A stretch of 64,000 bases of DNA from a virus (Duplodnaviria; Caudoviricetes): the IMG/VR virus record IMGVR_UViG_3300025416_000002, positions 1 to 64,000 of that record; one strand, 5' to 3'. This document shows positions 41,962 through 63,700 of this stretch, piece by piece. The position numbers and the translations under genes are program-made. Numbering within the stretch: the first letter of the stretch is position 1; each line of letters starts with the position of its first letter. Below the pieces are notes generated by a model. That model was not told the DNA's origin and made no database searches. It saw only the letters and a program-made list of their open reading frames with translations.

Positions 41962-43821
41962 ATGAGTTCAGAAAAAGTTATATATGTACAGAGAAGTGAA
42001 GTTCTCAATGGAGTACTAAGATATAGCAGTTTGGACCCAGAAGTCAAGAAATTATTTTCACTAGATTCCTACGGTACTCTTCGGGATCGTGACAAGATCA
42101 GCTTTTTTGATGACTTGATCAGGTATAACGGTTACGAACTTGAGTTTGAAAACGACGAAGCCAAAGAACGGTACTACTCCCTCTTGGCATGCAGTAAGGA
42201 ACCTTTTGAAGTAAACAGTCCTTTCTTGGATGACCACAAACTCTTTCCCTTCCAGCATGTTGGTTTGAACTACGTCTGGGAACAGATTCATTCAGATAAG
42301 CCACGAGTCCTTGTCCAGTGGGACACAGGTGCTGGCAAGACCCTCCTCAGCTGCTTGACCAGTCAGAAGCTTTTCGACAACGGTGACATTGACATGGTCC
42401 TTGTCTTCTGTAAGAAGATCAAGCAGTACGACTGGGAGCAAGAGTACAAGCGGATGACTCACCTGACCGTCGATCGTGTCGGTGAGAAGATGACCCGTGC
42501 CAAGAGGCACGCCTTCTATGAGCAGAACAAGTCGCAGGTGCTCGTATTGAACTACGAGAAGGTCCGCGATGGGTCAATGAAGAAAGTCAAGGGTCAGCGT
42601 CGTCGTGTCAAGTCATATGACCGCACCGATCTAGAGCAGATCCTGGAGATGGTCAAGGATAAGCGTGTTCTTATCGTCATCGACGAATCTCAGAAGATCA
42701 ACACTGGTACCAGCCTGCTGAGCGATGGTTTCTATAAGCTCATCAACGAGTCAGCGACCCACTCACGAGTGCTGGCATTGACCGCTACACCATACACCAC
42801 CAGCCCATTGAACATCCGCAACATCATGGCCGTGGTTGCCCCTGGTATCCCTGACGTAAGCGACATGAACCGTGACAAGTTCAAGGCAATGTACGGCAAA
42901 GACTTCGGTTACTTCAACAACGGCTTTGTCCAGGAAGTATACGTGAAGGAATGGGATCGTACGAAGCTCCCCATCCTTGGTAAGAAGCACGAGGACTGGA
43001 CGCACATCGCTATGAAGAGCGACCCCAGCATCGCTGCTCAGTTCCCTGAGAGTATGCCCAAGCGTCTGGTGTACGAGCTCTCTGACATCGACCGTGAAAT
43101 CTACGATTGGGCTGAGGAACGTGCTCGTGAGAAGTACAACCCAGACAACCCTGTAGCCAACTGGTCTTACATCGACATGCTTCGGATGATCTGTAACTCT
43201 ACCGAAGGGCTCAAGAACAGTGACAGCCGCTTCGCCAAGGAGATTGTCGCAGAGTTTGGCTCAGACATCAGTATTGCCAACAGCTCGAAGTACCAGCTGA
43301 TCGAAGGCAACCTCGAATCGTACATCGAAAACGGTGACAAGTCTGTACTGTTTACCTTCTGGACGCACGGCACCCTGTTCCCCTACCTAGAAGCCTTGCG
43401 TGCGAAGTTCTCAGATGTACCAATCCTGCCTATCTGGGGTGTTGGCATGAGCAGTGATGAAGTAACCAAGAACATCAAGACATTCAACGAAACCAAGGGG
43501 CCAGCCATCCTGATTACCAGTGACGTTGGCCAGGAAGGATTGAACCTGTATGCGCCATACCTCTGGAATATTGAAATTCCAAGGACTTATGCGGAATATA
43601 AACAAAGAGCTAACCGAATTAACCGAGCTGACTCGAAATCAAAGGGGATTAATCACACTTGGATCTACCGCCCAGTTGCGAGCAATACAATCGAAGAGCG
43701 AGTTGATAGTAAAGTTCTGCGAAGAAGAGCTGAGGCAGAATCTATCCGTGGAGTAGTGGACGAGCTTGGCGACATGGAAGACACAATCGATCTAACCCCT
43801 AAGGGTTTCCTGTTTAAATAA
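41962..43821 (+). CDS. SNF2/SF2-family helicase
   Basis: FPFQ, DTGAGKT, VIDESQ, LTATP, GQEGLNL, QRANRINR. Confidence 0.9.
   Translation: MSSEKVIYVQRSEVLNGVLRYSSLDPEVKKLFSLDSYGTLRDRDKISFFDDLIRYNGYELEFENDEAKERYYSLLACSKEPFEVNSPFLDDHKLFPFQHVGLNYVWEQIHSDKPRVLVQWDTGAGKTLLSCLTSQKLFDNGDIDMVLVFCKKIKQYDWEQEYKRMTHLTVDRVGEKMTRAKRHAFYEQNKSQVLVLNYEKVRDGSMKKVKGQRRRVKSYDRTDLEQILEMVKDKRVLIVIDESQKINTGTSLLSDGFYKLINESATHSRVLALTATPYTTSPLNIRNIMAVVAPGIPDVSDMNRDKFKAMYGKDFGYFNNGFVQEVYVKEWDRTKLPILGKKHEDWTHIAMKSDPSIAAQFPESMPKRLVYELSDIDREIYDWAEERAREKYNPDNPVANWSYIDMLRMICNSTEGLKNSDSRFAKEIVAEFGSDISIANSSKYQLIEGNLESYIENGDKSVLFTFWTHGTLFPYLEALRAKFSDVPILPIWGVGMSSDEVTKNIKTFNETKGPAILITSDVGQEGLNLYAPYLWNIEIPRTYAEYKQRANRINRADSKSKGINHTWIYRPVASNTIEERVDSKVLRRRAEAESIRGVVDELGDMEDTIDLTPKGFLFK
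43550..43756 (+). CDS. Candidate overprinted gene (+1 frame, 68 aa) inside the SNF2 helicase
   Basis: AGGAAGGA SD at 43532-43539; ATG; host codons switch to A/T endings over this interval. Confidence 0.55.
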   Translation: MRHTSGILKFQGLMRNINKELTELTELTRNQRGLITLGSTAQLRAIQSKSELIVKFCEEELRQNLSVE

Positions 43822-43889
43822 ACGAAAGGATTTAAAAAGGGTTAGAACTTGGTCCTAGGTATTGAAGAGATTCATTCTCAGAATCCTTC

Positions 43890-43958
43890 CCGTAGGGCCT
43901 GGTCTTCCTCGGGGGTTGCAGTCGACGTTCTGTTACGACTCCCCCCGAGGCCCTTCGG
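43890..43958 (+). ncRNA. Structured RNA element upstream of whiB
   Basis: Nested stems CCGTAGGGCC/GGCCCTTCGG, CCTCGGGGG/CCCCCGAGG and GTCG/CGAC. Confidence 0.5.
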
Positions 43959-43966
43959 TAAATATT

Positions 43967-44365
43967 ATGGAAAAAACAACCATTGACTATACGTGGCAAA
44001 GGCATTCACTCTGTGCCACAATGGATTTAAAGCTCTTCTACCCTCCACAAGGTAAAAGATATTCCACGGAAGCAGCAGCAGCCTGCGCATCGTGCCCAGT
44101 CAAGCAAGAGTGCATTGATCATGCGCTGAAGTATGAAGAGTATGGCTACTGGTCTGGCACCACACCCAAAGAACGGGAAGCAATGCGCAAGGAGCTGGGT
44201 GTTGAACTGGTCGATATCTCCTACGAGTCTAGCTTAGTTCTTGCAGAAGAGGTCCGCAAGCACGAAGAATTTACCAACAGCCTAAAAATTAAAGGCCGTG
44301 GAAGAAAGCCAAAAAGCTTGCTTTTGCAAGACACCAATGATACGATCATCTCGGAGAACGAATAA
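43967..44365 (+). CDS. whiB: WhiB-family Fe-S transcription factor
   Basis: C...CASC-PVKQE-C four-Cys pattern and GYWSG turn. Confidence 0.9.
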   Translation: MEKTTIDYTWQRHSLCATMDLKLFYPPQGKRYSTEAAAACASCPVKQECIDHALKYEEYGYWSGTTPKEREAMRKELGVELVDISYESSLVLAEEVRKHEEFTNSLKIKGRGRKPKSLLLQDTNDTIISENE

Positions 44366-44919
44366 TGTATTCTGAGATCACAGTGTTAACTGCCACAATT
44401 CCAGAGCGTATCGACATGCTCAAGGAATGCATCGAGTCAGTAGCCAACCAGACACTTAAGCCTGTGACGCACAACATCATCGTTGATGTTAACAAGCGGG
44501 GCAATCACTTTACATACAATGACTTGCTAAGCACCGTCAAGACTAAATGGTTGTGCTTCCTAGATGACGATGATGTGTTCTACCCGGACCACCTTGAGAA
44601 GCTAGTAAAGAATTCTGAAGGCTACGACATCGTATTTGCTAACGCAGATGTCAATGACCCACTCAATATCATCCGCTACAACGACAACAACTTCGATCCC
44701 AAGCAGCTTGCTGTTGAATCAGTTGTTCCGATTACAGCGTTAGTAAAGACTGCTGCAGTACTAGACGTTGGTGGGTTTGAGCCAGTGCAGAGCTGTGACT
44801 ATAAGCTATGGCGCAGCCTCTATTTTGCTGGATACAAGTTCAACAAGATCAATGATGTCACGTGGCGCTACCGTTTTCACGACACAAATTTTTCGCGTAA
44901 AGGTATTACGTGGAACTAA
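44365..44919 (+). CDS. GT2-family glycosyltransferase
   Basis: WLCFLDDDD DxD motif; CIESVANQT. Confidence 0.85.
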   Translation: MYSEITVLTATIPERIDMLKECIESVANQTLKPVTHNIIVDVNKRGNHFTYNDLLSTVKTKWLCFLDDDDVFYPDHLEKLVKNSEGYDIVFANADVNDPLNIIRYNDNNFDPKQLAVESVVPITALVKTAAVLDVGGFEPVQSCDYKLWRSLYFAGYKFNKINDVTWRYRFHDTNFSRKGITWN

Positions 44920-44934
44920 CTTATAGTGTATAAT
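44906..44934 (+). promoter_or_regulatory. Probable promoter for the glycan cassette
   Basis: TATAAT at 44929-44934; weak -35 TTACGT 17 bp upstream. Confidence 0.45.
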
Positions 44935-44957
44935 CTTAGAAAGAACAAAGGATAAAA

Positions 44958-46247
44958 ATGGCAACGCAAAAGCTTAGAGTTTTAGCATGGGGTGACTACG
45001 CATGTAGCACCGGTTTTGGTACAGTCATGCGCAACATCATGAGCGAGCTCAACAGTACTAACAAGTATGAGATCGACGTTATTGGTGTTAACTACGATGG
45101 TGGCCCCTACGACACTAAGAAGTGGCCAGGTACTCTCTGGCCTGCTATCAGTGCTCTTCGCACGCAAGGCCCATACGGTGATGTGTTCGGTCGTCAGGTT
45201 TTCCTTGACATGCTCTCGCAGCGTGACTACGACATCGTGTTCATCATCCAGGACACCTTCATCGTTTTGCCTATTGCTCAGCAGATCCTGGAGATCCAGC
45301 GCACAAAGCCTAAGACGTTCTCTACCATCTACTACTACCCGTTTGACTGTGGTCCCCGTGAAGAGTGGGTAACCCAGTGCGTAGCAGCCATGGACTTCCC
45401 CGTTGCTTACACTGAGTATGCCAAGGAAGAGTCTCGCAAGTTTGTTGGCCGCTTTGCTGACAAGATTGACGTTGTGTATCACGGTACGAACACCAAGGAC
45501 TTCTATCCACTCACACCTACGCAGAAGATCGAAGCACGCAATACGATCTTCCCAGAGGTAATTCGTGACAAGTTCATCGTCACCAACGTGAACCGTAACC
45601 AGGGCCGTAAGGACATCTCTCGTAGCCTCATGATCATGAAGGAACTGGTTAACCGTGGCGTAGATGATGTCTTCCTTTACATGCACATGCAGGAAACAGA
45701 CTTCGGTGGCAGCATCATCCAGATGGCTACCGCCATGGGACTTGACCCTAACCGTCACTTCACCATTCCAGACCCACGCCAGTTCGGTGCACACAGTGGA
45801 TTCCCCATTGAATTCCTCAACGGTATCTACAACGCTAGTGACGCCTACCTCACCACTACACACGGTGAAGGCTGGGGCTTGAGCATCACCGAAGCAATGG
45901 CTACCAAGCTTCCTGTTATCGGACCACGTAACACGAGTCTCCCTGAGATCCTTGGCGAGAACAGCGAGCGTGGTTGGTTGGTCAACAGTGGCCACACTCC
46001 ATCGCACTGGATCATCAAGGACAACGACAACGAGCGTATGCGTCCCTTGATGAGCGTTGAGGAAGCAGCAGATGCTATCCTTTACGTGAAGAACAATCCA
46101 GCAGAAGCGCAGGAGAAGGTCGAGCTTGCGTACGACTGGATTCAGGAGCACACATGGAAGCATGTCTGCAAGCAATGGCTTGGCATTTTTGATAAAGCTG
46201 TTGCCAAGACAAAGGCAGCCAACTTATCGTGGAAGGAAACAAAGTGA
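44958..46247 (+). CDS. GT4-type (GT-B) glycosyltransferase
   Basis: NRNQGRK and GEGWGLSITEAMA (Ex7E) motifs. Confidence 0.9.
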   Translation: MATQKLRVLAWGDYACSTGFGTVMRNIMSELNSTNKYEIDVIGVNYDGGPYDTKKWPGTLWPAISALRTQGPYGDVFGRQVFLDMLSQRDYDIVFIIQDTFIVLPIAQQILEIQRTKPKTFSTIYYYPFDCGPREEWVTQCVAAMDFPVAYTEYAKEESRKFVGRFADKIDVVYHGTNTKDFYPLTPTQKIEARNTIFPEVIRDKFIVTNVNRNQGRKDISRSLMIMKELVNRGVDDVFLYMHMQETDFGGSIIQMATAMGLDPNRHFTIPDPRQFGAHSGFPIEFLNGIYNASDAYLTTTHGEGWGLSITEAMATKLPVIGPRNTSLPEILGENSERGWLVNSGHTPSHWIIKDNDNERMRPLMSVEEAADAILYVKNNPAEAQEKVELAYDWIQEHTWKHVCKQWLGIFDKAVAKTKAANLSWKETK

Positions 46248-46900
46248 GATCACAAGTACTTCTAATTGTTCCCACTCGCAGTCGACCAGAAAAGTCACTG
46301 GAGTTTTACGAAGCGTTCCGTGAGAACTCGAGCATCACAGACTTACTGTTTGCACTGGATGATGACGATGTTGAGTACCCGCAGATCGAGGGTGCTCAGT
46401 ATGAAATCAATCCACGCATGGGTATGAATGGTACTCTAAACTATGTAGCGAACAAGTACGCTGAAGAATATGACTACCTCGCATTCATGGGGGATGACCA
46501 CCGCATCCGCACAAAGGATTGGGATAAGGATCTCGTAGCATCAATCACCGGTTTTGAGAATGGTGTTGCGTATGGCAACGACCTTCTTCAGGGTAGCAAC
46601 TTGCCCACTGCAGTTCTTATGGACGCTCACATTGTTCGTAAGTTAGGGTACATGGCACCACCTAAGCAACGCCACCTTTACCTGGATGACTTTTGGAAGG
46701 AACTTGGCAACGCTCTAGGCACCTTGAGATACAGTCCTGGCGTAATCATTGAGCACCTGCACTTCACCAACGGTAAGGCAGACAGCGACGCTCTGTACCA
46801 AGAGGTTAATGCACCAGAACTTTATAACAAAGATCGTGAAGCATACAACGAATATCTTGCCAATGATTTCAATTCTGATTTAGAAAAGTTAAAGAGCTAA
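46244..46900 (+). CDS. GT-A fold glycosyltransferase
   Basis: IVPTRSRP and FMGDDH motifs; IEHLH; GTG start after an AAGGAA SD. Confidence 0.8.
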   Translation: MRSQVLLIVPTRSRPEKSLEFYEAFRENSSITDLLFALDDDDVEYPQIEGAQYEINPRMGMNGTLNYVANKYAEEYDYLAFMGDDHRIRTKDWDKDLVASITGFENGVAYGNDLLQGSNLPTAVLMDAHIVRKLGYMAPPKQRHLYLDDFWKELGNALGTLRYSPGVIIEHLHFTNGKADSDALYQEVNAPELYNKDREAYNEYLANDFNSDLEKLKS

Positions 46901-46901
46901 C

Positions 46902-47453
46902 ATGATTAAAAGATTGCGTGAAAAATACTCTGATGAAGAACTATCGCGTATTTATAGTACGCCACATCAGTCGTGGAAAGACACAGATCACAACATACGC
47001 GTAGAAAGAACGATCGAATTCATTGACAAGAACTTTGATAGCATTAAAAATGCAGCAGACTTATCAGCAGGTGATGCTCGTATTATCAACTCTATCAAGA
47101 TCGAAGGCGATAAATATATTGGTGATTTCGCACCAGGCTATGATCTGACAGGGCCGATTGAAAAAACTTTATTGGAGATACCAAAAGTAGATCTGTTCAT
47201 CAATTCAGAAACCCTAGAACACATGGATGATCCTCAGGATGTTCTCAATAGAATTAGAGAGAAAACCGATCACCTTGTTCTTTCCACTCCTGTCGGCAAG
47301 TTCAACGATACGAACCCTGAACACTACTGGGCATGGGATTATGAGGGCATTGAAGAACTGCTTAACAAGGCTGGTTTCACTGTATTCGATAGCGACGTAG
47401 TTTATCTCGCTGATCAATTCGTTTATGACTTTCAACTAGTGGCTTGCAGATAG
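46902..47453 (+). CDS. Class I SAM-dependent methyltransferase-like protein
   Basis: ADLSAGDA motif I and SETLEHMDDP...LVLSTP. Confidence 0.7.
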   Translation: MIKRLREKYSDEELSRIYSTPHQSWKDTDHNIRVERTIEFIDKNFDSIKNAADLSAGDARIINSIKIEGDKYIGDFAPGYDLTGPIEKTLLEIPKVDLFINSETLEHMDDPQDVLNRIREKTDHLVLSTPVGKFNDTNPEHYWAWDYEGIEELLNKAGFTVFDSDVVYLADQFVYDFQLVACR

Positions 47454-47454
47454 C

Positions 47455-48267
47455 ATGACAGTGCGCATGGTTGATAAGTACCCAGGATCAAAAGCCTGGC
47501 AGTACAATTTCGATGCCCCAGAAGGATACTGGCCAGCAAACTGCAACGTATATGTTGGAGATGGTAAGCCAGCTATCGTAGTTACCTGTAGGAACCTATC
47601 TATTGGCGACGACTATCAGCCAGTATGGGGAGAGCAAGGTGTTATTAGAACTAGAAGTTACTTTGCTTTTGTCGATGATGAGTTCAACCCAATCAGTGAA
47701 TGGAAAGAGCTGGATCAGCCAAACGTAGATGTTCACTTCCCAGCTGTTCGTGGAGCTGAAGACCCACGTCTTTACTACCGTGATGGCAAGTGGATGTGGG
47801 CTGGAACAATCCGTGAACACCACCCCAGTGGAGATCCAAGAGTCTGTGTCGGCACCGTTGATGATGGTATGCTATACATTGTTGATGGTAATGGATGGGT
47901 GAAGAACCAGATGCCGACCACGGTTGACAATCCTGAGTTCATTGATTCAGATACACCACGTACACCTCACTTGCATGGTGGTGGCGTGTTCCCATATGGT
48001 GATGGATACATTGGCATTTGTAAGGGCCACATGAATGCAACGTGGCCACATCGCACATACTTGAGCCAGTTTGCATTGTTCGATGCTGCAGGGAACATCA
48101 CACACTTAACAGAGAAGTTCACAATGACTGAGTGCCCGATTGAAGTCGCAACCGGTTTGACATTGTATAAGGATGAATTGATTATTGGCTTTGGGTTAAT
48201 GGACCGAGAAGCCTGGCTGGCAAAGGTTCCTCTGGGACCTGTATTGGATAGTATGGTAGAACTATGA
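47455..48267 (+). CDS. GH130-like beta-propeller (glycosidase/phosphorylase/transferase)
   Basis: RGAEDPRLY, VKNQMP, HGGG and IIGFGLMDREAWL blade motifs. Confidence 0.7.
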   Translation: MTVRMVDKYPGSKAWQYNFDAPEGYWPANCNVYVGDGKPAIVVTCRNLSIGDDYQPVWGEQGVIRTRSYFAFVDDEFNPISEWKELDQPNVDVHFPAVRGAEDPRLYYRDGKWMWAGTIREHHPSGDPRVCVGTVDDGMLYIVDGNGWVKNQMPTTVDNPEFIDSDTPRTPHLHGGGVFPYGDGYIGICKGHMNATWPHRTYLSQFALFDAAGNITHLTEKFTMTECPIEVATGLTLYKDELIIGFGLMDREAWLAKVPLGPVLDSMVEL

Positions 48268-49133
48268 ACATTTTGATAACTGGACACAAGGGATTCGTCG
48301 GTAGATACTTCTGCAAGAAGTACGGAAGCGACCACGACATCACTGGCATTGACATCGTTGATGGTAACGATGCTAGAGAATTCTTCAGGATTAACAATCA
48401 ACACTACGATTTGGTAATCCACTTGGCAGCTGTTGTTGGCGGACGCATGACTATCGAAGGCGCACCGTTGTCAGTAGCTGTAGACCTTGCTATCGATGCT
48501 GAAATGTTTCAGTGGGCATTGCGTACAAAGCCAGGGCGCATCGTGTACTTCTCTAGCTCCGCTGCGTATCCCATTGAGTTGCAGACAAGAGACTCGGGCA
48601 TCAAGCTTCGTGAAGATGCTATTGACATCAACAACTTGAAGATGCCTGATCTTACGTACGGTTGGAGCAAACTGACTGGCGAATACCAGGCTCAGTTCGT
48701 GCAAGCAGAAGGTATTAAGATCAACGTCTTTAGGCCGTTCAGTGGTTATGGTGCTGATCAAGATCTTGCTTACCCTTTCCCATCGTTCATCAAGCGTGGG
48801 AAAGAGCTGCAAAACCCGTTTGAGATCTGGGGTGATGGCACACAGGTTAGAGATTTTATCCACATCACAGACATTGTAGACGCGGTAGATGAAGCGATTA
48901 GACAAGACGTGCAAGGCCCAGTAAACTTGGGCTGGGGTAGGTCAACTTCATTCAACGAGCTGGCTACAATGGTTGCTGATGCTGCAGGATATTCTCCAGA
49001 GATCAAGCACCTGGAAGCTGCTCCAACTGGCGTGATGTATAGAGTGTGTGATCCCGCTAAGATGTTGTCGTTTTATCAACCCAAGATCACACTCGAACAA
49101 GGGATTGAGGAGGCGTTACAGTATGACATTTGA
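48264..49133 (+). CDS. NAD-dependent NDP-sugar epimerase/dehydratase (extended SDR)
   Basis: ITGHKGFVG, HLAAVVGG, SSS, YGWSK, IWGDGTQVRDF. Confidence 0.9.
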   Translation: MNILITGHKGFVGRYFCKKYGSDHDITGIDIVDGNDAREFFRINNQHYDLVIHLAAVVGGRMTIEGAPLSVAVDLAIDAEMFQWALRTKPGRIVYFSSSAAYPIELQTRDSGIKLREDAIDINNLKMPDLTYGWSKLTGEYQAQFVQAEGIKINVFRPFSGYGADQDLAYPFPSFIKRGKELQNPFEIWGDGTQVRDFIHITDIVDAVDEAIRQDVQGPVNLGWGRSTSFNELATMVADAAGYSPEIKHLEAAPTGVMYRVCDPAKMLSFYQPKITLEQGIEEALQYDI

Positions 49134-49311
49134 AGAATGGCTTGATTATGGAGTGAAGCATGGGTACTGCACCGAGCAGTTCTGCGACACTCACGATGGC
49201 CCACCGATGCACGAAACCGAAGAAGACGCTTGGGACCGTGGTGGCGATCCCTGCATGCACATGGTGAGACTCGGGTCTTACGATGACTGGAACACAGGAG
49301 AAGAAGAATGA
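49123..49311 (+). CDS. Small Cys/His protein (62 aa)
   Basis: YC...CDTHDG...DPCMH; GAGGAGG SD upstream. Confidence 0.7.
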   Translation: MTFEEWLDYGVKHGYCTEQFCDTHDGPPMHETEEDAWDRGGDPCMHMVRLGSYDDWNTGEEE

Positions 49312-49439
49312 CAATTCTATGTGTGCTGGTATTCCCAGCAATCGCAATCGCAACGGTAGGATACTTTGTCTACCGTTGGAACAAAGGCGTGAGGGCAGGG
49401 ATCTTCCAGAAGGTCAAGTTCCCTAAGCGCAAGAAATAA
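49308..49439 (+). CDS. Small membrane protein (43 aa)
   Basis: One TM helix and basic tail; AGGAG SD; ATGA overlap. Confidence 0.6.
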   Translation: MTILCVLVFPAIAIATVGYFVYRWNKGVRAGIFQKVKFPKRKK

Positions 49440-49506
49440 TCCGAACGAAGCAAATACCGTAGATGCAGCAAGGGGCCTGGGTATGCCCCCTAACAACTAC
49501 CCACAA

Positions 49507-49580
49507 CTGGTAGTGGCTCAACTTGGTAGAGCGGTTGGTTTGGGTCCAACAGGTTGGGGGTTCAAATCCCTCCTACCAGA
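49507..49580 (+). tRNA. trnP: tRNA-Pro(UGG)
   Basis: Acceptor CTGGTAG/CTACCAG; anticodon loop TT-TGG-GT; TTCAAAT T-loop. Confidence 0.93.
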
Positions 49581-49587
49581 CGCATTA

Positions 49588-49659
49588 GCCCTTGTAGCTC
49601 AGAGGAAGAGCATCTGTTTTGTAATCAGAGGGTCGGGGGTTCAAATCCCTCCGGGGGCA
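49588..49659 (+). tRNA. trnT: tRNA-Thr(UGU)
   Basis: Acceptor GCCCTTG/CGGGGGC; loop TT-TGT-AA. Confidence 0.9.
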
Positions 49660-49661
49660 CT

Positions 49662-49889
49662 ATGACATTAAATCAAGCAGCGAAGATTATGCTGGAGTTG
49701 TGCAACATCCCAGCTACACCAAAGTTGATTGCAGCGTTTAGCAATTACTCGTCTAACAGTATGTACATCAAAGGCGTATTGAAGCAGGCAGCGCCACAGG
49801 CGAGCAGTATGAGTAACCCTGCGTATCAGCAGGCGATGGAAGTTTTGCGTTCCAACGGAATTGATGTTAATATCTTTGATACCAACTAA
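49662..49889 (+). CDS. Hypothetical protein (75 aa)
   Basis: ATG directly after tRNA-Thr; frame open to 49889. Confidence 0.55.
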   Translation: MTLNQAAKIMLELCNIPATPKLIAAFSNYSSNSMYIKGVLKQAAPQASSMSNPAYQQAMEVLRSNGIDVNIFDTN

Positions 49890-49901
49890 GTAGGAGTAAG
49901 T

Positions 49902-50078
49902 ATGCATCACGAAACCTGGTGGAGTATCCTCACCGATCCCAACCACCTCATTGCTGAAAGCATTGTGGGGTTAGTAGAAGAGCTCATCGTCTTTGGACTG
50001 GGTTATTACTTCGGTCGCAACAAGATCTGGAAGAAGATCCACAAGCAGTTCGATGAGGAACACAACATCGAGCACTAA
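49902..50078 (+). CDS. Small membrane protein (58 aa)
   Basis: AGGAG SD; one hydrophobic helix followed by a basic segment. Confidence 0.65.
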   Translation: MHHETWWSILTDPNHLIAESIVGLVEELIVFGLGYYFGRNKIWKKIHKQFDEEHNIEH

Positions 50079-50083
50079 GATTG

Positions 50084-50159
50084 GCCCCAGTAGCTCAGTG
50101 GACAGAGCTGAACGTTTCTACCGTTTAGGCCGGGGGTTCGAATCCCTCCTGGGGTACCA
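50084..50159 (+). tRNA. trnR: tRNA-Arg(UCU), CCA encoded
   Basis: Acceptor GCCCCAG/CTGGGGT; loop TT-TCT-AC; ACCA end. Confidence 0.93.
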
Positions 50160-50160
50160 A

Positions 50161-50233
50161 GGATGATTAGCTCAATTGGCAGAGCAGGACCTTTACACGG
50201 TCAAGGTTGGGGGTTCGAGTCCATCATCATCCA
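50161..50233 (+). tRNA. trnV: tRNA-Val(UAC) with stem mismatches
   Basis: Acceptor GGATGAT/ATCATCC; loop TT-TAC-AC; G.A mismatches in the anticodon and T stems. Confidence 0.8.
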
Positions 50234-50259
50234 CTGCAGTACACTAGTAAGGAGAAACC

Positions 50260-51618: not shown

Positions 51619-51626
51619 ATTTGTAT

Positions 51627-51655: not shown

Positions 51656-51684
51656 TTATATAACAACCAGTAAGGAGACAAACA

Positions 51685-54682: not shown

Positions 54683-54700
54683 ATAAGTAAGGAGAAAGAA

Positions 54701-55236: not shown

Positions 55237-55613
55237 TGGAAAAGAAGTTGGCACAATCAGGTGATATGGTCTTCGAAAGAAACCTTGCTATCATCGCAGG
55301 CAGACGCCAGGAAGTACAGATCTTCAGTGATGGATTCGTTTACAAGGGCTACATGTGTGGCCTGGACGAACAGTGGATCCAGCTGTACGGTCACGAAGAG
55401 AACGATCAGAATGACTACGATGCTCAATGGAGATTCCTGTTGATTAACAGGATCAACATCTCGGCTATTGGTCCTAACGGTAAGAACCTGACCGACCTTG
55501 ACGACGAGACTCGTGAGTGGGTGAGCAAGAAGATTCAGATCTTCTCAGATGTTTGTGATAAGTTTGGTTCAGTAAGAGGAGTAAAGAACCATGACGGAAA
55601 AGAAAAGTTTTGA
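55236..55613 (+). CDS. Sm/Hfq-like fold protein (putative RNA-binding)
   Basis: EVQIFSDGFVYKGYMCGLDEQWIQL (Sm1-like) and LLINRINISAI (Sm2-like). Confidence 0.5.
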   Translation: MEKKLAQSGDMVFERNLAIIAGRRQEVQIFSDGFVYKGYMCGLDEQWIQLYGHEENDQNDYDAQWRFLLINRINISAIGPNGKNLTDLDDETREWVSKKIQIFSDVCDKFGSVRGVKNHDGKEKF

Positions 55614-56055
55614 TGGTAATCCAGCGAACTATGATGACGATAGCTACGATGAAGTCGTTGAGGTCAAAGTCATTGAGAGCAAGGAAGAACTGGTAGCAAG
55701 CATCGATCTGGTTAACGCCAGTCCTCGCGACCTACTGCTGTACTTCTCTGATCGTTTCAAAGAGAAGCACGGCTATACCTACAATATTGAGTGGGTGAAA
55801 GAAACATCCATCTTCAAGAGCTTCAAAGAACGTTACGGTGTTGACGCTGGTCCGATGATCGCCTTGCTGTTTGACAAGCACGGTGGTAAGCTGAACGACC
55901 TGGTGATGACCGCAACAGCATTCAGTAAGGGTAGCAAGTGGATACAAGACACTTTGTACATTGAGCTACAGCAACAAAAACTCAAAGAACAAAACCGCAA
56001 TAGTACGGAAGGATTGATGAATACAGATGACTTCATTGAACGATTCGCTTTTTGA
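55591..56055 (+). CDS. Putative replication initiator/loader accessory protein
   Basis: Directly upstream of the DnaC-like ATPase; AGAGGAG SD. Confidence 0.5.
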   Translation: MTEKKSFDGNPANYDDDSYDEVVEVKVIESKEELVASIDLVNASPRDLLLYFSDRFKEKHGYTYNIEWVKETSIFKSFKERYGVDAGPMIALLFDKHGGKLNDLVMTATAFSKGSKWIQDTLYIELQQQKLKEQNRNSTEGLMNTDDFIERFAF

Positions 56056-56827
56056 TTGGGAGAAGGATTACGTAAACCTCAAGTACGAGTTCCTTGAAGA
56101 CGAGGAGGTTGACTACCTTGAGCAGAAGTATCCCCAGTTCGAGAAGTTCGCTAAGCAAGGTTGCCCTACGTGTCTCGACAACACGTGCGGTGACTGCAAG
56201 TATCAGCTTCAGTTGTACAAGCACTACTCACGTGCAGGCATTGGCCTGAACTACCAGCGTCTCAGCTGGGAAGATTTCCAGGGTGACGAGAAGGCTTTGG
56301 CGTTGGCTAGGATCTACCTTGGCCAGCACAAGGAGTTCGTCAAGGGTGGTATGGGTATCCTCTACCATGGCACCTGGGGTACTGGTAAGACACTGCTCAC
56401 TAGCCTTATCGCTAAGGAGCTTGTCAAGCTGGGCTACAGTGTCTACTTTGCTACGTTCACCCAGATGGTTGACGAGTTCACCCGTGGTTGGGGTAGCAAC
56501 GATGACAAGGCACGCTTCGAGAGCAAGGTCGTTAAGAGCGACGTGTTCTTCCTGGACGACATTGGTAAGGAGTTCCGCACCAAGAACAACCTGAGTGAAG
56601 CAACGTTTGACCACGTCATGCGTCAGCGTGCACTGGACAACCGTCCAACGTTCATCACTACCAACATGGGCATTGATGAGTTGATGGAAGGCTACGGTGG
56701 TGCTATATTCTCTCTCCTGAAGGAGCGGGTGATCGAGCACAACATGACTGGCATCGACTATCGTGAGTACGCACGCAACCGTACGCTTGACGAAATTAAG
56801 TATGGAACAGTAAGGAAGATCCTGTAA
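56027..56827 (+). CDS. DnaC/IstB-like AAA+ helicase loader
   Basis: CPTC...CGDC zinc motif; GTWGTGKT; FFLDDIGKE; TFITTN. Confidence 0.9.
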   Translation: MTSLNDSLFDWEKDYVNLKYEFLEDEEVDYLEQKYPQFEKFAKQGCPTCLDNTCGDCKYQLQLYKHYSRAGIGLNYQRLSWEDFQGDEKALALARIYLGQHKEFVKGGMGILYHGTWGTGKTLLTSLIAKELVKLGYSVYFATFTQMVDEFTRGWGSNDDKARFESKVVKSDVFFLDDIGKEFRTKNNLSEATFDHVMRQRALDNRPTFITTNMGIDELMEGYGGAIFSLLKERVIEHNMTGIDYREYARNRTLDEIKYGTVRKIL

Positions 56828-58107
56828 TGGACATTGAAAAGAGTTTGGTTCGGCACTTTGCCAACCTCGATAGCTTTAACGAAATTTGGAACAAGGGGAT
56901 CCGCAGCGAGCACTTCTTCGATGATGGTGTGCGTGAGCTGTTTGACTACAGCCTTGACTACTACATCCGTAGCGAGTTCAAGAGCACGGTAGACCAAGAC
57001 TTCCTGGAGACCAAGTTCGCTGACTACTTCGTACGTAACGAGTGGCCAGAGGAAGAGTACCTGGTAGGCGTTCTCATTGAAGAAATGATGACTAAGTACC
57101 GCAAGGCTACAACTCAAAGCGTCCTATTGAAGGCAGCAACAGCGTTGGAGTCAGACCCTGAGTCTGGCATTGCACTGGCATTGAATAGCTTGTCCAAGAT
57201 CCAAAACGACACTAGTACTCGTGAGCGTCTTGAGGTCTACGGTGAGGGCTATGACCGCCGTGTCAACAACTACCTTGAGGAAGTCGCCAACCCTACCCGT
57301 GACAAGAAGGGTATCTACCTGGGCTGGGATGAACTGAACGATCACATGTACGGGATCCAGAAGGGTGAGCTTGCGGTTGTCGTGGGTATCCCAAACGTAG
57401 GTAAGTCGTGGGTGGGCTCAGTCATCGCTCTTGAGGCAGCACGTCGCAAGAACAAGGTCTACTTTGCATCGCTGGAGCTCCGTAAGGAACTGACACTGAT
57501 GCGTCTGGACTGCTTGGCTAGTGGTGTACCCTACAGCCGTTACGAGCGTGGGCAGCTTACTCCCAATGAGCTTCGTCGTCTCAAGGAAGCACGTGAAGAG
57601 ATCATGGAGTTTGGTGAGTACCTGATGATCGACTCGCCAGCACGTAAGAACGAGCGTAGCGTCTTGGAGCTGTACTCCAAGGCTAAGCACTGGGGTGCTG
57701 ACATGGTCGTGGGTGACCAGTTGTCATGGGTTACCACCGAGAAGTCGTACGGTAGCTCGAGCAACGTGCAGTCCCTGCAGATGGCAGAAGTCATCACCGA
57801 CATTGCCAGTACCAACCGTGAGATGGGTATGGCATCCGTGTGGCTCGCACAGTTTAACCGTGAAGCTATGAAGAACAAGAAGGGTCGAGGTGGCCTAGGC
57901 AACATTGGTCTCTCCTCACAGATCGAACAGATCGTGGACATGGCCATTGGTATCGGTGCTACCCGAGAGATGAAGCAGCAGGAAGCTCTCGTCATGGACA
58001 TCATGAAGTCTCGTCGTAGTGACCTTAAGTCCTGGATGATGGGCTTCGAGCTCAAGGACCGCACTAGCTTAAAGGTTGTCCGTGAGTACGAGGATGCTAC
58101 AGAGTGA
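56827..58107 (+). CDS. dnaB: DnaB-like replicative helicase
   Basis: GIPNVGKS, SLEL, VGDQL, LAQFNR, SSQIEQIVD. Confidence 0.92.
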   Translation: MDIEKSLVRHFANLDSFNEIWNKGIRSEHFFDDGVRELFDYSLDYYIRSEFKSTVDQDFLETKFADYFVRNEWPEEEYLVGVLIEEMMTKYRKATTQSVLLKAATALESDPESGIALALNSLSKIQNDTSTRERLEVYGEGYDRRVNNYLEEVANPTRDKKGIYLGWDELNDHMYGIQKGELAVVVGIPNVGKSWVGSVIALEAARRKNKVYFASLELRKELTLMRLDCLASGVPYSRYERGQLTPNELRRLKEAREEIMEFGEYLMIDSPARKNERSVLELYSKAKHWGADMVVGDQLSWVTTEKSYGSSSNVQSLQMAEVITDIASTNREMGMASVWLAQFNREAMKNKKGRGGLGNIGLSSQIEQIVDMAIGIGATREMKQQEALVMDIMKSRRSDLKSWMMGFELKDRTSLKVVREYEDATE

Positions 58108-58256
58108 CACGTAAGCAGTTGTACGAGAAGCATCAGCCTATCTTCCAGAATCAAGGGCGTAAGGGCAACGTTAACTACTGTGTAGGTTGCAAGGGCCCAA
58201 ACAACACCCTGATCCAGAAGTGGCCGTGCGATGTCATTAGGGCATTAGATGCGTAA
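58104..58256 (+). CDS. Small CxxC...WPC protein (50 aa)
   Basis: GTG overlaps the dnaB stop; CVGC...KWPCDVIRAL. Confidence 0.6.
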   Translation: MTRKQLYEKHQPIFQNQGRKGNVNYCVGCKGPNNTLIQKWPCDVIRALDA

Positions 58257-58391
58257 GAATGAAAGAGGTTTCTGGGAGTGCAGACTACCCATCAACCCAA
58301 TGAAACACCCAAGTAAGCTACATGAACAGGCATTAAACGACCTCAGCCCAAGGGATCGTGAGCTCATAGAGAACATTAAGGACGATTTGAA

Positions 58392-59411
58392 ATGGCTAAA
58401 GGACAACTAAAAGAGATCTTCGCAGGTCTCGATGCCAGAGTGGTTCTACAGGACATCCTGGGTGTAGGCGAGATCATGGAGAATGGCGACGAGTACATTC
58501 ACTCATGCCCACTACCGTTTGGTGTTCACCGCAATGGTGACCGTAACCCCAGCGCAAGCTTGAACAAAGAAACCCTTCTGTTCAACTGCTTCGGTTGCGG
58601 GGGTGGCAGTGTTATCTGGCTGGTGCAGAACGTACTCAACGTCGATCGTGACGAGGCCATAGCCATCCTGAAGAATGAGGTGGTGGAGCTCAAGGTCGTA
58701 GCGATCGAGGACTTCATCAAGCGTCTGGAGGGTGTCTTCGCTGCCAACCCTTGCGACCGTAATGAGATCCCCCACTACAGTGACAACATCATCAAGCGTT
58801 GGGAAGGTCCTTGCGACTATTTAACTACCAGAGGCGTCTCAGTTGACGTACAACGGGAGATGCGCACGGGGATAGAGATGGGTAGGCTAGAGATGGCTAA
58901 GACCCTCACAGGCGAACGTAGCGTCGCTGTTGACCGTGTAGTTATACCCCACTTCATGAACGGTAGGCTAGTTGGATGGGTAGCTCGCAAGGTCGAGGAT
59001 GTCCAGGGAGTACCCAAGTACCGCAACTCTAAGGGATTCCCACGGGGAGCCTGGTTATTTAACCTAGATAACGCCCGTCAATACGATGAGGTCTACGTAG
59101 TCGAGAGCCCCATGAGCGTCCTGGTCATGAAGTCCAGGGGCATCAAGAACGTGGTGGCTACCTTCGGTGCTAAGGTCGATAAGCAGCAGCTCAACCTTCT
59201 GCGTAGGTTCAACAAGGTCAACGTGTTCATGGACGGGGATGCCCCTGGTCGTATGGCCACAGACCACATCCTTGAGGAGTTACAAAACTATACCAAAATT
59301 GGTATAATTTTGACACCTGACGATGAAGATCCTGCTACTATGGAGATCATCCCCACACCAACAAGTTCGTTTGAGTACCAGTTAAAACACCGTTTGACTT
59401 GTGTTAGTTAA
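58392..59411 (+). CDS. dnaG: DNA primase (CHC2 zinc finger + TOPRIM)
   Basis: CPLPFGVH...FNCFGCG; PKYRNS; VVESPMS; FMDGDAPG. Confidence 0.9.
   Translation: MAKGQLKEIFAGLDARVVLQDILGVGEIMENGDEYIHSCPLPFGVHRNGDRNPSASLNKETLLFNCFGCGGGSVIWLVQNVLNVDRDEAIAILKNEVVELKVVAIEDFIKRLEGVFAANPCDRNEIPHYSDNIIKRWEGPCDYLTTRGVSVDVQREMRTGIEMGRLEMAKTLTGERSVAVDRVVIPHFMNGRLVGWVARKVEDVQGVPKYRNSKGFPRGAWLFNLDNARQYDEVYVVESPMSVLVMKSRGIKNVVATFGAKVDKQQLNLLRRFNKVNVFMDGDAPGRMATDHILEELQNYTKIGIILTPDDEDPATMEIIPTPTSSFEYQLKHRLTCVS
59280..59308 (+). promoter_or_regulatory. Promoter inside the primase 3' end (upstream promoter for SSB)
   Basis: TTACAA-17 bp-TATAAT with TG extension. Confidence 0.7.
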
Positions 59412-59422
59412 GCTGGTACTCT
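59394..59422 (+). promoter_or_regulatory. Second promoter for SSB
   Basis: TTGACT-17 bp-TACTCT with TG extension. Confidence 0.75.
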
Positions 59423-59480
59423 TATGAGTGCAGTAAACAAAAACCAACAGCCCTAGGGCTTCTAAAAGAAAGATACCAAA

Positions 59481-60299
59481 ATGGCATTGCAAAAAGGCAT
59501 GGCTGCCGTAAAGGCCAGCATTGAACGGTCACAGAAGGGCTCAGGCCCCAAGACCTACACCGAAACCAACTGGTTCTATTGGACCGCAGGAGAGACGAAG
59601 GCTCTACGCTTCCTCACGGACAGCAACGACATCTTCGTAGTTCCAGTCCACGAGAACGTACCCACCCACGATGGCAAGAAGAAGACCTTCGTCTGCCGCA
59701 GTGTGTTCGACGCCTCATGCGAGCTGTGCGCTCGTGCCAAGGGCGAGCCAGGTGCGTACCGTCGTGACGTTGGTTACGGTGTCGCCGTACTTCGTGAAGA
59801 AGTGCGTGAAGACGGTAAGCTCACCGGCTACCGCGACGTTACTACCACGTACGAAGACACTGTCGACGGCAAGGTAGTTACCAAGAAGAAGCCATACGTG
59901 GGCATTGTCTCGCAGGGTATGCGCAACTTCTGGAACCAGATCGCTGTCATCAGCGAGAAGTACGGTAGCCTCCGTGATCGAGAGATCGAAATCCTGCGCA
60001 ACGGTCAGGGAACTGACACCACGTACATGGCATTTCCTCTCGACAAGAAGGAGATCGAGAACATCGACACCCGCTACGCAAAGTTCCTTCCAGATATCGA
60101 GGCTTTCCTCAACCGTATCGGCAGCCAGGAGTACTACGATGCTCAGCTGCACGGAATCGTCAAGGAGAAGGAAGTGAAGTCACCCTCCTCCTCTGCTTCC
60201 TTCGCTGAAGACGATGACGAGTACGGCGAGGAAGAGTTCGTCGGTATCTCGGAAGAGACTACTGCTGACCGTCTACGCCGGAAGATGGCTGGGCAGTAG
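59481..60299 (+). CDS. Phage ssDNA-binding protein (gp32-like)
   Basis: TKALRFL, C...CELC zinc site, RNGQGTDTTY, acidic C-terminal tail. Confidence 0.8.
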   Translation: MALQKGMAAVKASIERSQKGSGPKTYTETNWFYWTAGETKALRFLTDSNDIFVVPVHENVPTHDGKKKTFVCRSVFDASCELCARAKGEPGAYRRDVGYGVAVLREEVREDGKLTGYRDVTTTYEDTVDGKVVTKKKPYVGIVSQGMRNFWNQIAVISEKYGSLRDREIEILRNGQGTDTTYMAFPLDKKEIENIDTRYAKFLPDIEAFLNRIGSQEYYDAQLHGIVKEKEVKSPSSSASFAEDDDEYGEEEFVGISEETTADRLRRKMAGQ

Positions 60300-60305
60300 T
60301 CCCCT

Positions 60306-60383
60306 GTAGAGTGAGCCAGTGGAGTTGGTTGGTAATGTTTCCCTTCCTTTCTGTTACCGAATCAGCTCCACTGGTCACTCTAC
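60306..60383 (+). ncRNA. Long RNA hairpin with a pyrimidine-rich anti-SD-like loop
   Basis: About 30-bp stem with G-U wobbles and two G bulges; 16-nt loop GUUUCCCUUCCUUUCU. Confidence 0.65.
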
Positions 60384-60405
60384 CTAACCAACAAGAAAGA
60401 ACACA

Positions 60406-60696
60406 ATGACATTGAATGCACTAGAAGACAAGGTAATCATTAAGGTTGCCAAGGTCGAGGAGACCACCGAGAGTGGTTTCTATCTTCCAGAAACTGCAAC
60501 AGCTATGCCAGACCAAGGCACTGTTGTAGCAGTGGGACCAGGCTGGACTGCTAGCAATGGAACCGTAATCCCAACTGGAATTAGTGTTGGCGATGTGGTA
60601 TTGTTCAACCGCAGGGCTGCTCAGAAGATCACGGTAGACGACGAAGAGTATCTCGTCTTCCTGTCTGAACACATCCTCGGCATCTTTACCGAGTAG
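60406..60696 (+). CDS. groES: GroES-like co-chaperonin
   Basis: LEDKVIIK...TESGFYLP...GTVVAVGPG...VGDVVLF...EEYLVF.EHILG. Confidence 0.93.
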   Translation: MTLNALEDKVIIKVAKVEETTESGFYLPETATAMPDQGTVVAVGPGWTASNGTVIPTGISVGDVVLFNRRAAQKITVDDEEYLVFLSEHILGIFTE

Positions 60697-60751
60697 CGTT
60701 GCAAGACCTGGGTACGTCATTAAACTACCCAACTAACAAGTAAGGATTACC

Positions 60752-63700
60752 ATGACAGATAAACTTGTCCACCTCCACGTTCACACCGAACACTCATTCC
60801 TGGATGGACTTCAGACAGTAGACCAGCTCGTAGATCGAGTGGTATCTCTCGACCAAGAAGCTGTAGCTATCACTGACCACGGTGAGTGCAGCGGTCACCT
60901 TCGCCTTCAGCATGCAGCTGACAAGGCTGGCATCAAGCCTATCTTCGGTATGGAAGGATACTTCACCGACAACCGGTTCGATAAGACTGGTAAGAAGGGT
61001 GAGAACTACGACCACATGACCATCGTGGCTATGAATGCCAAAGGTCTGGAGAACCTGTGGTCTCTGTCGAGTCTAGCTTATATCGAGGGTAGCTACTACG
61101 GCAACCCACGCTTTGACTGGGAACTCCTGGAGCGTTACAACGAGGGCCTGATCGTTACTGGTGGCTGCATGGGTGGCTGCATTGGTAAGCACCTCAAGGA
61201 TGATGGTATCTACCAGCGTGCTGTAGAACGTATCAGCCGTTACCAAGCCATCTTCGGTGATCGTTTCCACCTTGAGCTGCACACTTACCTTGACCCTGAG
61301 AGCAACGAGTGGAACATGCGAGTGGCCGAAGCAGCCATTGACTACAGCGTTCCTCTGCTTGCTGTCAGCGACGCACACTACGCTGAGCCTGACCACTGGT
61401 TTGCTCACGAGCTCATGACTGCTGTGCAGATGGGCAAGACTGTTGACGACCCCACACGATTCAGCTACGGTCCTAACCAGCTGTGCATCTTCTCAGAGGA
61501 GGAGACACGTAGTCGTCTAAGTTATTTGCCTGAGTCACTCGTTGACCAGGCGATCAATCGCACCAACGAGATTGCACAGATGTGTGATGCCCGTGTACCT
61601 GGTGCACGCAAGATGCCTGTGTTCTACAACACTGCAGCGATGGACGAGCGCAAGCTCCGTGAAACTGTAGAAGAAGGCTTCAAGCGAAAGATCGAAGGCC
61701 ACGTAACTGAAGAGATGCTCCCTGTCTACCGTGAGCGTATCGAATATGAAATGGATGTCATTGTAACCCGTGGGTTCCCGGGGTACTTTCTAACCGTACA
61801 AGACATTATTAACTGGAGTAAAAATGAAAACTTTTTGGTTGGTCCTAGCCGTGGTTCAGTCGGCGGAAGCCTTCTTGCTTATGTTATGGACATCACGGAA
61901 GTCGATCCGATCCCTTCTGGCCTTATCTTTGAGCGCTTTCTTAACCCTGAGCGCGTCTCTATGCCTGATATTGACATTGACATGCCAAAACTTGAGCGTG
62001 GAATGGTGCGCGACTATCTGGAGCGTAAGTATGGCCGCAACAATATTGCTTCTATCGGCACTCTCAACACGTTAGGCGCACGCCAGGCTATCCGAGACCT
62101 ATGTCGTGGCATGGGCATCAGCAAAGACGATGCAGCAACCATGTCTGACATCATCGATGACGACTGGAACATCAAGAACCGTGGTGCAGACTGGGCTACC
62201 GTCTACAAGCAGTACCGTTCTGAGTACGCTCCATGGGTTACCAAGTACCCACAGCTCTTCGAGACACTGCCTGAGGTAGTCAACCACATCCGCCACGCCA
62301 GTGCACACGCTGCAGGCATTGTGATCAGCAAGGAACCACTCGTTGGTGCTATGCCATTGCGCTACAGCCAGGTGAACGATGATATCCGTACGCAGTTTGA
62401 CATGGGCGACATCGATGAGCTGGGCTTTGTCAAGATCGACTTGCTCGGTCTACGTACGTTGAGTACACTCATGGCTGCATTGGATCTAATCAAGGAGAAC
62501 AACGGTGGCACCCTACCTTTTGACCATTTCTATGAATGGAACAACAACTGGTCAAAGTATTACGACGACGCTGGTGTCTGGGACTCAATTGGCACCGGTC
62601 ACAATATTGGATGCTTCCAGATCGAGACAGGTTCCCTTAGAAGTTTGGTTAAGCGATTCCTCCCTCGTAACATCGAAGACCTCTGCACAATGATCGCTAT
62701 CTATCGTCCGGGTATTACCCGAGCGGTGGATGCAGAAACTGGCTTGAACCTCCTCGAGATGTACATGCAGAAGCGAGAAGGCAAGCGCAGGGTAACCTAC
62801 AAGCACCCTAAGCTAGAAAAGATGCTGGGTGTCTCGTACGGTAGTTTCGTGTACCAGGAGCAGATCATGGAGACCTGCGTCGAGCTCGCTGGGTATACCA
62901 TCGTAGAGACTGACCGTGTGCGTAAGGCAGTGGCCAAGTCTAACTACGAAGACATGGTGGAAGAAGCTGAGATCTTCGTGCGCAAGTGCGTGGAGAACGG
63001 CGTAGACAAGGAAGTCGCCAAGTCGATCTTCGATGACATGCGTGCCTTTGGTATGTATGGATTCAACAAGTCTCACGGTTATGGCTACTCCATGCTGACC
63101 TACTGGACTGCCTGGACCAAGCACCACTACCCGCGTGAGTACATGACTGCGCTGTTCCGTACCAACCCCAAGGACAATGTGGTCTACACCCGTGAGGCTC
63201 GTCGCATGGGCATCGAGGTGCTGGGACCTGACATCAACGAGAGCGGTGGCAACTTCACCCTTACCAAGTCAGGCAGCATCCGCTATGGCTTGAATAGTGT
63301 CAAGTACATCTCTGGCTCTGCCCAGGAGCTACAGAAGCTGGGTCCATTCTCAAGCATGGAAGACTTCGCAACGCGTGTCCCATCGAAGAAGGTGAACAAG
63401 CGTGCTGTCATTGCCATGATCAAGTGCGGTGTGTTCGACAGCATCTGTGGAGACGCTCGGACAGCTCTGCGCCAGTACCTCGAATACCGTAAGGAGAAGA
63501 ACCTTGATAATCCTTGTAGCCCTGATTGCCCTCATTGCATTGGACATCTCACTACATTTGATTGCTACGCAGATCTGCAAGAGAATGTCATGGCTCGCGG
63601 ACAAAACGAGCATGAGCTACTGGGGACTATGGTTAGTGTCGATCCTCTTGCTGATTATCTGGGCATCATAGAAGAAGAGCACAATTTCCCTGGAGAGAAG

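Follow-up and report, generated by a model that had tools for sequence, protein, structure and literature searches.

A candidate overprinted membrane microprotein gene in the replicative polymerase gene of uncultured freshwater phages

How many genes are hidden inside the replication enzymes of a large phage? The question is raised by a 64,000-nucleotide stretch of a large double-stranded DNA phage (IMG/VR record IMGVR_UViG_3300025416_000002, positions 1 to 64,000; hereafter the window), in which four open reading frames (ORFs) lie in the +1 frame of two genes, an SNF2-type helicase gene and dnaE. An initial annotation had proposed that all four belong to a hidden layer of overprinted genes, two of them with host-type promoters of their own. 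Comparison with relatives leaves one good candidate, ORF C in dnaE, which is probably a translated gene under selection. The two other frames in dnaE, ORFs A and B, are chance ORFs, the proposed promoters are refuted, and the ORF in the helicase gene (the SNF2 ORF) is doubtful. Taken jointly, we mildly favor an account in which ORFs A and B arose by chance, the SNF2 ORF is a by-product of recombination and codon choice, and ORF C is an overprinted gene restricted to one clade.

Throughout, W denotes the phage sequence of the window and L-numbers (L001 to L187) label its relatives. A search of 50,697 phage records gave no close relative by DNA, and in a protein search the DnaE of the nearest cultured phages was only 33–35% identical, so uncultured relatives were chosen for comparison. 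These come from metagenomes of humic freshwater lakes, and the stretch itself is present in many freshwater DNA runs; genomes in this uncultured group of double-stranded DNA phages are roughly 100–135 kb. The dnaE set comprises 31 unique sequences in 26 lineages (<90% nucleotide identity in the region; 46–94% amino acid identity), with 25 representatives besides W for tests on ORF C and 24 for ORFs A and B. The helicase set comprises 72 unique sequences, with openness tallied in 67 relatives. Contigs of four DNA runs yielded no usable variants within the nested ORFs.

ORF C (63504..63671, plus strand, as are all the ORFs, genes and promoter-like sites given below) runs from a TTG start to a TAG stop and encodes 55 amino acids, a candidate two-helix membrane microprotein. 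Its host, dnaE (60752..>64000, truncated by the window end), also contains ORFs A and B and encodes a DnaE-like polymerase III alpha subunit with the Pfam domains PHP, DNA_pol3_alpha, finger and HHH_6. AlphaFold2, given a 14-sequence alignment, predicts a helix over residues 2–34, a turn, and a second helix over residues 39–54, with a pLDDT (predicted local distance difference test) of 74.6. Helix 1 (about residues 2–22; 63507..63569) overlies a variable, Cys-rich insertion of DnaE, and helix 2 (residues 39–54; 63618..63665), with the sequence [YF]WELWLVLILLLII, overlies the conserved DnaE motif ELLGTMVSIDPLADY. Intact peptides consist of a hydrophobic segment of ~20 residues, a loop rich in Lys and Arg, and a second hydrophobic segment with the [YF] sequence just given. 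Helix 1 is hydrophobic in all intact lineages despite differing host residues, and W40, L44, I47, L48, L49 and I52 are kept in at least 90% of sequences. The insertion beneath helix 1 spans DnaE residues ~922–946 (63516–63590), between the helix-hairpin-helix (HhH) and C-terminal domains; it has the form C-x3-C-x2-C ... C, its four Cys are invariant in the family, and it resembles a zinc-binding module.

The frame is open in 16 of the 25 lineages. It is intact in 20 of the 31 unique sequences and in 14 of the 25 lineages besides W, and in two lineages (L183, L004) it is open but non-hydrophobic or only partly hydrophobic. Intact lineages have 53–55 codons, with start and stop each within one codon of the same alignment position, and these positions are kept even though differing host residues form them from lineage to lineage. 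The start codon is TTG in W, L001, L181 and L184 and ATG in most lineages; about eight have an in-frame stop immediately before it. A longer version of the frame, from a GTG at 63429 (80 amino acids), acquires stops in relatives, all of them upstream of the TTG at 63504. Given gene-wide codon usage, 4.1 open lineages are expected, and given the local third-base composition, 5.8; the Poisson-binomial P values for the observed number are 1e-8 and 2.6e-6, respectively. Among ~1,100 dnaE windows ORF C ranks first, with z of 5.0–5.5, and the next unrelated window reaches 3.7. Start, stop and transmembrane (TM) pattern are therefore kept in most lineages beyond expectation, and on this point the proposal of an overprinted gene holds for ORF C. 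Two other ways of accounting for the frame were considered and rejected: a programmed frameshift fusing it to DnaE, as many lineages have a +1 stop right before the ATG, and antisense ORFs beneath the patch, which vary in length and are not conserved.

The host codons carry a second signal. A maximal segment of low G+C content at third codon positions (GC3), rich in T at those positions (T3), occupies 63503..63658. No window of the family alignment has a larger T3 excess, conditioned on the encoded amino acids (mean z 1.88; window standard deviation 0.51), and A shows no rise at third positions. Of six GC3-rich lineages in which ORF C is open, five have T3 z of 2.1–3.8; the sixth, the non-hydrophobic L183, scores -0.5. 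Lineages with a broken frame give 0.9 (L010), -0.1 (L186), -0.7 (L023) and 1.0 (L187). Third-position identity between GC3-rich lineages is 0.40 in the patch vs 0.51 gene-wide, and since the third positions of the patch are thus saturated, the T3 pattern appears to be maintained rather than inherited by shared ancestry.

Could this pattern make the ORF, rather than the ORF the pattern? One rival account recognizes no gene among the four ORFs and sees ORF C as the by-product of a dnaE feature that is conserved at the nucleotide level, made up of T-rich third positions in the Cys-rich insertion and a conserved element of ~35 nucleotides in the ELLGTMVSIDPLA-coding stretch. Such a feature might serve as a site for protein binding or recombination, or reflect codons chosen to help the zinc-finger-like module fold. 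There is mechanical sense in it: T at a host third position gives xTx codons in the +1 frame, which excludes stops and yields hydrophobic residues, and a quarter of +1 ORFs are TM-like by chance. Other dnaE windows are also T3-enriched family-wide without a conserved ORF. We nonetheless consider this account rather unlikely, although it deserves to be taken seriously. The null model that already grants the local third-base composition falls well short of the 16 open lineages, and the positions of start and stop are held despite changes in the host residues beneath them. Nor is A generally avoided in the patch, because Leu, Ile and Val codons end in A in 9 of 25 cases where the next codon starts with a pyrimidine and the choice is harmless to the overlapping frame. 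The conserved stretch also has no covariation-supported RNA fold; the structure considered, a hairpin of -5 kcal/mol, shows neither compensatory pairs nor covariation.

Helix 2 also bears on the choice between the two accounts. Of all 11-codon windows in dnaE, the one at 63626–63658, within this helix, is the least diverse at synonymous sites (ratio 0.61, z -3.9, rank 1); with 26 lineages its ratio is 0.73 and its rank 6 of 1067. Over 63620..63652, where helix 2 begins, each third position is fixed to its own base (G, A, T, T, T, T, T). Six helix-2 third positions (in ACN, GTN, GAY, CCN, CTN and GCN codons) carry T in 78 of 84 instances across the 14 intact lineages; T is the sole base there that gives hydrophobic +1 residues, and other bases would place Pro, Ser, Thr, Arg, Gln or a stop in the helix. 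The second Leu of the host ELLG ends in G, which gives Trp in the +1 frame, in 13 of these 14, and the Gly is GGA, which gives Glu, in 10, so that G, A and T at successive sites spell out [YF]-W-E-L-W-L. The corresponding counts in nine broken or non-TM lineages are T in 31 of 54, G at the second Leu in 2 of 9 and GGA in 2 of 9. The G and A suit an aromatic interface motif, whose Trp and Glu they match, and they disappear where the ORF is broken; the constraint is thus site-specific rather than just T-richness, and it is coupled to the integrity of ORF C. The initial annotation named reduced synonymous variation as a check on the nested ORFs. For ORF C the reduction is strong only over helix 2 (0.61–0.73) and mild over the whole frame (0.93–0.95), the constraint being compositional, with T at third positions, and there is no reduction under ORFs A and B or the SNF2 ORF.

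Several observations weigh against reading ORF C as a gene. The P values given above are optimistic, as the stop-prone sites fall in ~7–10 partly conserved columns and the lineages are related; with the effective number of lineages halved, P is about 1e-3, or about 0.006 once corrected for four candidates. Nine of 25 lineages have a broken frame, including members of the main clade (L182, L186, L187, L010), and L183 keeps it open without any hydrophobic segment. Broken L182 is also the exception to the third-position pattern, with a T3 z still at 2.1. Taken over the whole ORF, the reduction in synonymous diversity is slight. The T3-rich composition could have another cause, and the dnaE segment under ORF A is the second most T3-enriched window family-wide, yet has no conserved ORF. 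The tallies for helix 2 and for A endings were counted by hand from alignments rather than by script. The start is TTG in W and three other lineages, and some lineages lack the site resembling a Shine-Dalgarno (SD) sequence. The runs listed with the stretch include no RNA run. A profile search of 1.84 billion representative proteins returned 0 homologues, Pfam and PHROGs gave no family match, and Atlas scores reached only 0.85. The lack of homologues would be equally compatible with a non-gene and with a gene born de novo.

We conclude that ORF C is most likely an overprinted gene limited to one clade of uncultured freshwater phages, a reading drawn from comparative sequence analysis. In W an AAGGAG (63491..63496), supplied by host Lys-Glu codons, stands 7 nucleotides 5' of the TTG; in intact relatives there is mostly an AAGGA(G/A) 5–13 nucleotides before the ATG, from conserved host Arg-Lys-Glu codons. 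We propose a model in which ribosomes would initiate internally on the dnaE mRNA to translate ORF C, at AAGGAG-N7-TTG in W and at AAGGA(G/A)-N5-13-ATG in its relatives. The host codons would then furnish the SD-like motif, and no promoter of its own is indicated. The product may insert in the cytoplasmic membrane as a hairpin with its basic loop in the cytoplasm, and it would act in the replication phase, when the replication genes are expressed. The DnaE tree calls for at least six changes of ORF C state, and the basal lineages L023 and L154/155 do not have it; a de novo origin after the split from these lineages, followed by about five losses, would be consistent with this distribution.

Within the single genome, neither the number nor the length of the nested ORFs is exceptional. 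All four +1 ORFs exist within SNF2 or dnaE as first described, except that the start at 63504 is a TTG and not an ATG. However, the window contains 33 +1 ORFs of at least 60 amino acids against 33.3±4.2 in synonymous shuffles, as the initial annotation itself had cautioned, and 13 of at least 80 amino acids against 13.5 expected. Together the former take up 13.6% of the coding sequence. Stops are scarce in the +1 frame of any gene here, so ORFs of 60–150 amino acids are routine; the +2 frame has only 2 ORFs of at least 60, and the shared +1 frame of the four therefore follows from the code itself. Of the 33, 8 have a TM-like segment (7.8±2.4 expected). An SD-like motif is indeed found at each of the four (AAGGA for the SNF2 ORF, GGAG, AAGGAG and AAGGAG for A, B and C), and two of the stops do use codons that are rare in these genes (TTA, 2 of 87 Leu codons; ATA, 1 of 66 Ile codons).

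The shift of two-fold degenerate codons towards T and A endings is real in three of the four ORFs. In the SNF2 ORF a fraction of 0.39 ends in C or G, compared with 0.68 (P=0.004); ORF A has 0.52 against 0.73 (P=0.02) and ORF C 0.33 against 0.73 (P=7e-5). These are the three lowest values among the 33 +1 ORFs. ORF B, for which a milder shift had been claimed, shows none (0.74 vs 0.73). Where patch bounds are taken as maximal low-GC3 segments, patch and ORF coincide for the SNF2 ORF (43567–43755) and ORF C, and for ORF A the patch (61787–61885) covers only the start. There are 15 such patches in the window, most of them without a +1 ORF, and 2 lie wholly within one. The idea that T-rich third positions mechanically create +1 ORFs was tried and set aside, as the effect is weak and chance ORFs in shuffled genes have a T3 z of only +0.23. 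Searches of Pfam and PHROGs with the four peptides gave nothing below E=0.02, an exact-sequence look-up found none of the four, and the gene calls of nine fetched relatives' contigs include none for ORF C.

A randomization test for overlapping genes that compares ORF length with codon-permuted nulls has been described (Schlub et al. 2018; PMC6188560). Our approach resembles that test and Synplot2-type scans in setting ORF lengths against permuted nulls and then turning to comparative synonymous-site analysis. It differs from single-genome randomization in outcome: none of the four ORFs is exceptional in number or length, and relatives alone single out ORF C. ORF length, SD-like motifs, TM hydropathy, promoter patterns and codon flips, singly or together, failed to separate real from chance ORFs within the one genome.

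ORFs A and B illustrate this failure. ORF A (61824..62075, 83 amino acids) is open in 0 of 24 lineages; its interval contains 1–8 +1 stops in every relative, including two, confirmed by translation, in the closest (93% amino acid identity). For ORF B (62505..62693, 62 amino acids), 5 of 24 lineages have an open frame, against an expectation of 5.4. Host synonymous diversity is 1.02 of the gene mean under ORF A and 0.98 under ORF B, and the SD-like motifs simply come from the codon pairs TGG AGT (Trp-Ser) and AAG GAG (Lys-Glu), for which relatives have synonymous variants. With scattered +1 stops and undiminished synonymous variation, neither can be upheld as a gene; both are chance ORFs, because their stops occur at the expected rate and neither their SD-like nor their promoter-like sites are conserved. 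The start of ORF A falls in a mosaic block (61787–61920) that is 96–97% identical to L024, with ~77% identity elsewhere.

The promoters fare no better. The pattern TTGnnn-17-TAnnnT occurs 44 times in the window against 35.6±6.3 expected, a chance frequency, and sigma-70-like sites number 20 against 20.4. The matches 5' of ORF A (61761..61789) and of ORF B (62441..62469) are chance matches whose -35 element is lost even in the closest relative, L001. In contrast, an intergenic match of the same pattern (TTGACT-17-TACTCT, 59394..59422), which serves as a positive control, is kept nearly letter for letter in L001, L002/3/12/22, L011 and L019–21. In relatives this intergenic element is found at 1987 (L001), 1983 (L002), 1469 (L011) and 1573 (L019), and a second kept element, TTGACAAGCT...TAG..T, lies past the window end at the dnaE 3' end (about 6248–6269 of L001–L013). 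The full four-gene layer, with two members driven by their own host-type promoters, has in its favor that ORFs, SD-like motifs and flipped codon endings do occur together in the window. Set against it are the closed or chance-level frames of ORFs A and B, promoter-like sites at chance frequency that are not conserved where an intergenic one is, and SD motifs that vary synonymously in relatives, and we now give it practically no credence.

The SNF2 ORF poses a harder case. It spans 43550..43756 (68 amino acids) over helicase motifs V–VI of an SNF2/ResIII-type helicase gene (41962..43821; Pfam ResIII, Helicase_C and SNF2-rel_dom). The unusual codons of W in this region have a separate history. 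A segment at 43534..43735 is 88–91% identical to L132, L107 and L125, whose SNF2 genes are elsewhere 63–64% identical to W and have a GC3 of 0.29–0.35, and identity between W and L049 rises from about 0.8 to 0.96–0.98 across it. As these identities indicate, the ~200-bp tract is an import from a low-GC3 lineage, in the most conserved part of the protein, and the T- and A-ending codons of the SNF2 ORF are explained by that recombination. A second low-GC3 patch, at the 5' end of the gene (41965–42090), has no ORF, and identity jumps there to L049 and L028; the patches at both ends of the gene are short mosaic recombination tracts. More broadly, GC3 across the dnaE and SNF2 alignments spans 0.28–0.62 at 65–90% amino acid identity (for example, 0.61 in W vs 0.34 in the L002 group at 89% amino acid identity), which suggests lineages adapting to hosts of differing base composition while still exchanging DNA.

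Recombination accounts for the codons of W and leaves the frequency of the open frame in its relatives to be considered. Of 67 relatives, 42 have the SNF2 ORF open, against 13 expected under independent resampling, and it ranks 1 of 569 windows. Its ATG, formed from Tyr-Ala (TAT GCN), is kept in 60 of 67, one of two among 244 invariant columns that are conserved at 19/20 or more, and GTA before G is rarer inside the ORF than outside (0.12 vs 0.37). No other part of the gene has a lower stop potential. It is therefore tempting to suppose that ORF C and the SNF2 ORF are both translated overprinted genes, the product of the latter being a fast-evolving soluble peptide for which openness and a start are all that matter. 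An independent-lineage P of 1e-14 (z=9) was dismissed as over-confident, because the signal depends on 4–5 columns; a column-swap null that keeps the phylogeny gives P=0.008–0.02. Synonymous diversity under the ORF is 0.98–0.99, so that no constraint is seen, the +1 peptide is 42% identical vs 86% for the host protein, and the frame is stopped or lacks its ATG in 27 of 67 sequences over many lineages, with as many as 4 stops per sequence. Ile and Leu codons in the patch shun A and G endings even where stops are impossible, which points to codon choice in a critical motif, CpG avoidance favors TAT ahead of G (0.66), and the codon flip is specific to W and belongs to the recombination tract. We consider two translated genes an improbable outcome.

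That the SNF2 ORF is so often open is most likely due to codon choice within helicase motif V–VI, which is invariant. The ORF itself is ambiguous and probably a by-product, with a small chance of being real. An extension of the two-gene view would make the replication genes a nursery of overprinted genes, in which ORF C arose de novo as a two-pass protein, the SNF2 ORF is younger, both are translated, and recombination tracts spread such ORFs across base compositions. We regard this idea as speculative and improbable too.

Other features of the region vary between relatives. In one lineage (L019–L021 and L158–L160) an insertion of ~1.3 kb follows dnaE codon ~467 (about 4401–5690 of L019), with the frame resuming beyond it, and in a relative from ENA dnaE is likewise called in pieces, of 495 and 620 amino acids; the insertion may be an intron, an intein or a homing-endonuclease insertion. 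Immediately after dnaE, most fetched contigs of L179–L186 have ORFs of 44–48 amino acids and unknown function, and in L187 the next gene is a homologue of pyrimidine-dimer excision proteins (Pyr_excise). The tRNA-cluster region of the window (49450–50250) varies between co-occurring strains, as judged from the many joints and loose ends there in the contigs of four DNA runs.

Beyond the locus itself, a methodological lesson may be drawn. Single-genome signals did not separate real from chance ORFs and comparison with relatives did, and one striking codon-usage flip proved to be a recombination tract of 200 bp. Annotation pipelines disallow nested gene calls, and embedded genes are invisible as a result. 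If ORF C is a gene, it is a conserved membrane microprotein written over a replicative polymerase. It would also show clearly how a gene can arise de novo where an essential enzyme carries a tolerant, Cys-rich insertion, and then be lost repeatedly, and it would offer a testable target for small-protein discovery in uncultured phages.

To our knowledge, embedded genes in large double-stranded DNA phages are essentially established just for spanins. Rz1 is read in frame +1 within Rz, and o-spanin genes are known to occur embedded, overlapped or separated (PMC6139136). Like the embedded o-spanin genes (lambda Rz1 in Rz, T7 18.7 in 18.5), ORF C would be a small envelope-protein gene wholly inside a larger gene on the same strand, in the +1 frame and with its own start. 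Unlike them, it lies in a replicative polymerase gene rather than a partner from the lysis cassette, its predicted product is a two-helix hairpin rather than a Pro-rich lipoprotein, and it is known from sequence alone. The ORF C peptide alignment has no conserved Cys or lipobox, and the host gene encodes DnaE, not an i-spanin.

A second parallel is found among the smallest phages. The phiX174 gene E in D and the leviviral L over coat and rep encode short hydrophobic lysis proteins, out of frame in essential genes. ORF C is likewise short, hydrophobic and out of frame in an essential gene, with homologues only in a narrow clade. However, E and L, each with a single TM domain, belong to tiny single-stranded DNA and RNA genomes whose size is under strong pressure, whereas ORF C is found in double-stranded DNA genomes of ~100–135 kb and is predicted to have two helices. 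The replication-module context also makes a role in lysis unlikely.

In predicted shape, ORF C resembles the class II holins and pinholins such as S21, which are likewise small, with two predicted TM helices and a short loop. No holin family in Pfam or PHROGs matched ORF C. It differs from the class II holins in ending at helix 2 without a charged C-terminal tail, and in its location in the replication module rather than beside an endolysin. Our best guess is that, rather than a holin, the product would be an early or middle membrane effector, acting in superinfection exclusion or modulation of the host membrane. Set beside these systems, ORF C is a candidate for an embedded +1 phage gene of a recognizable kind, in an unusual host gene.

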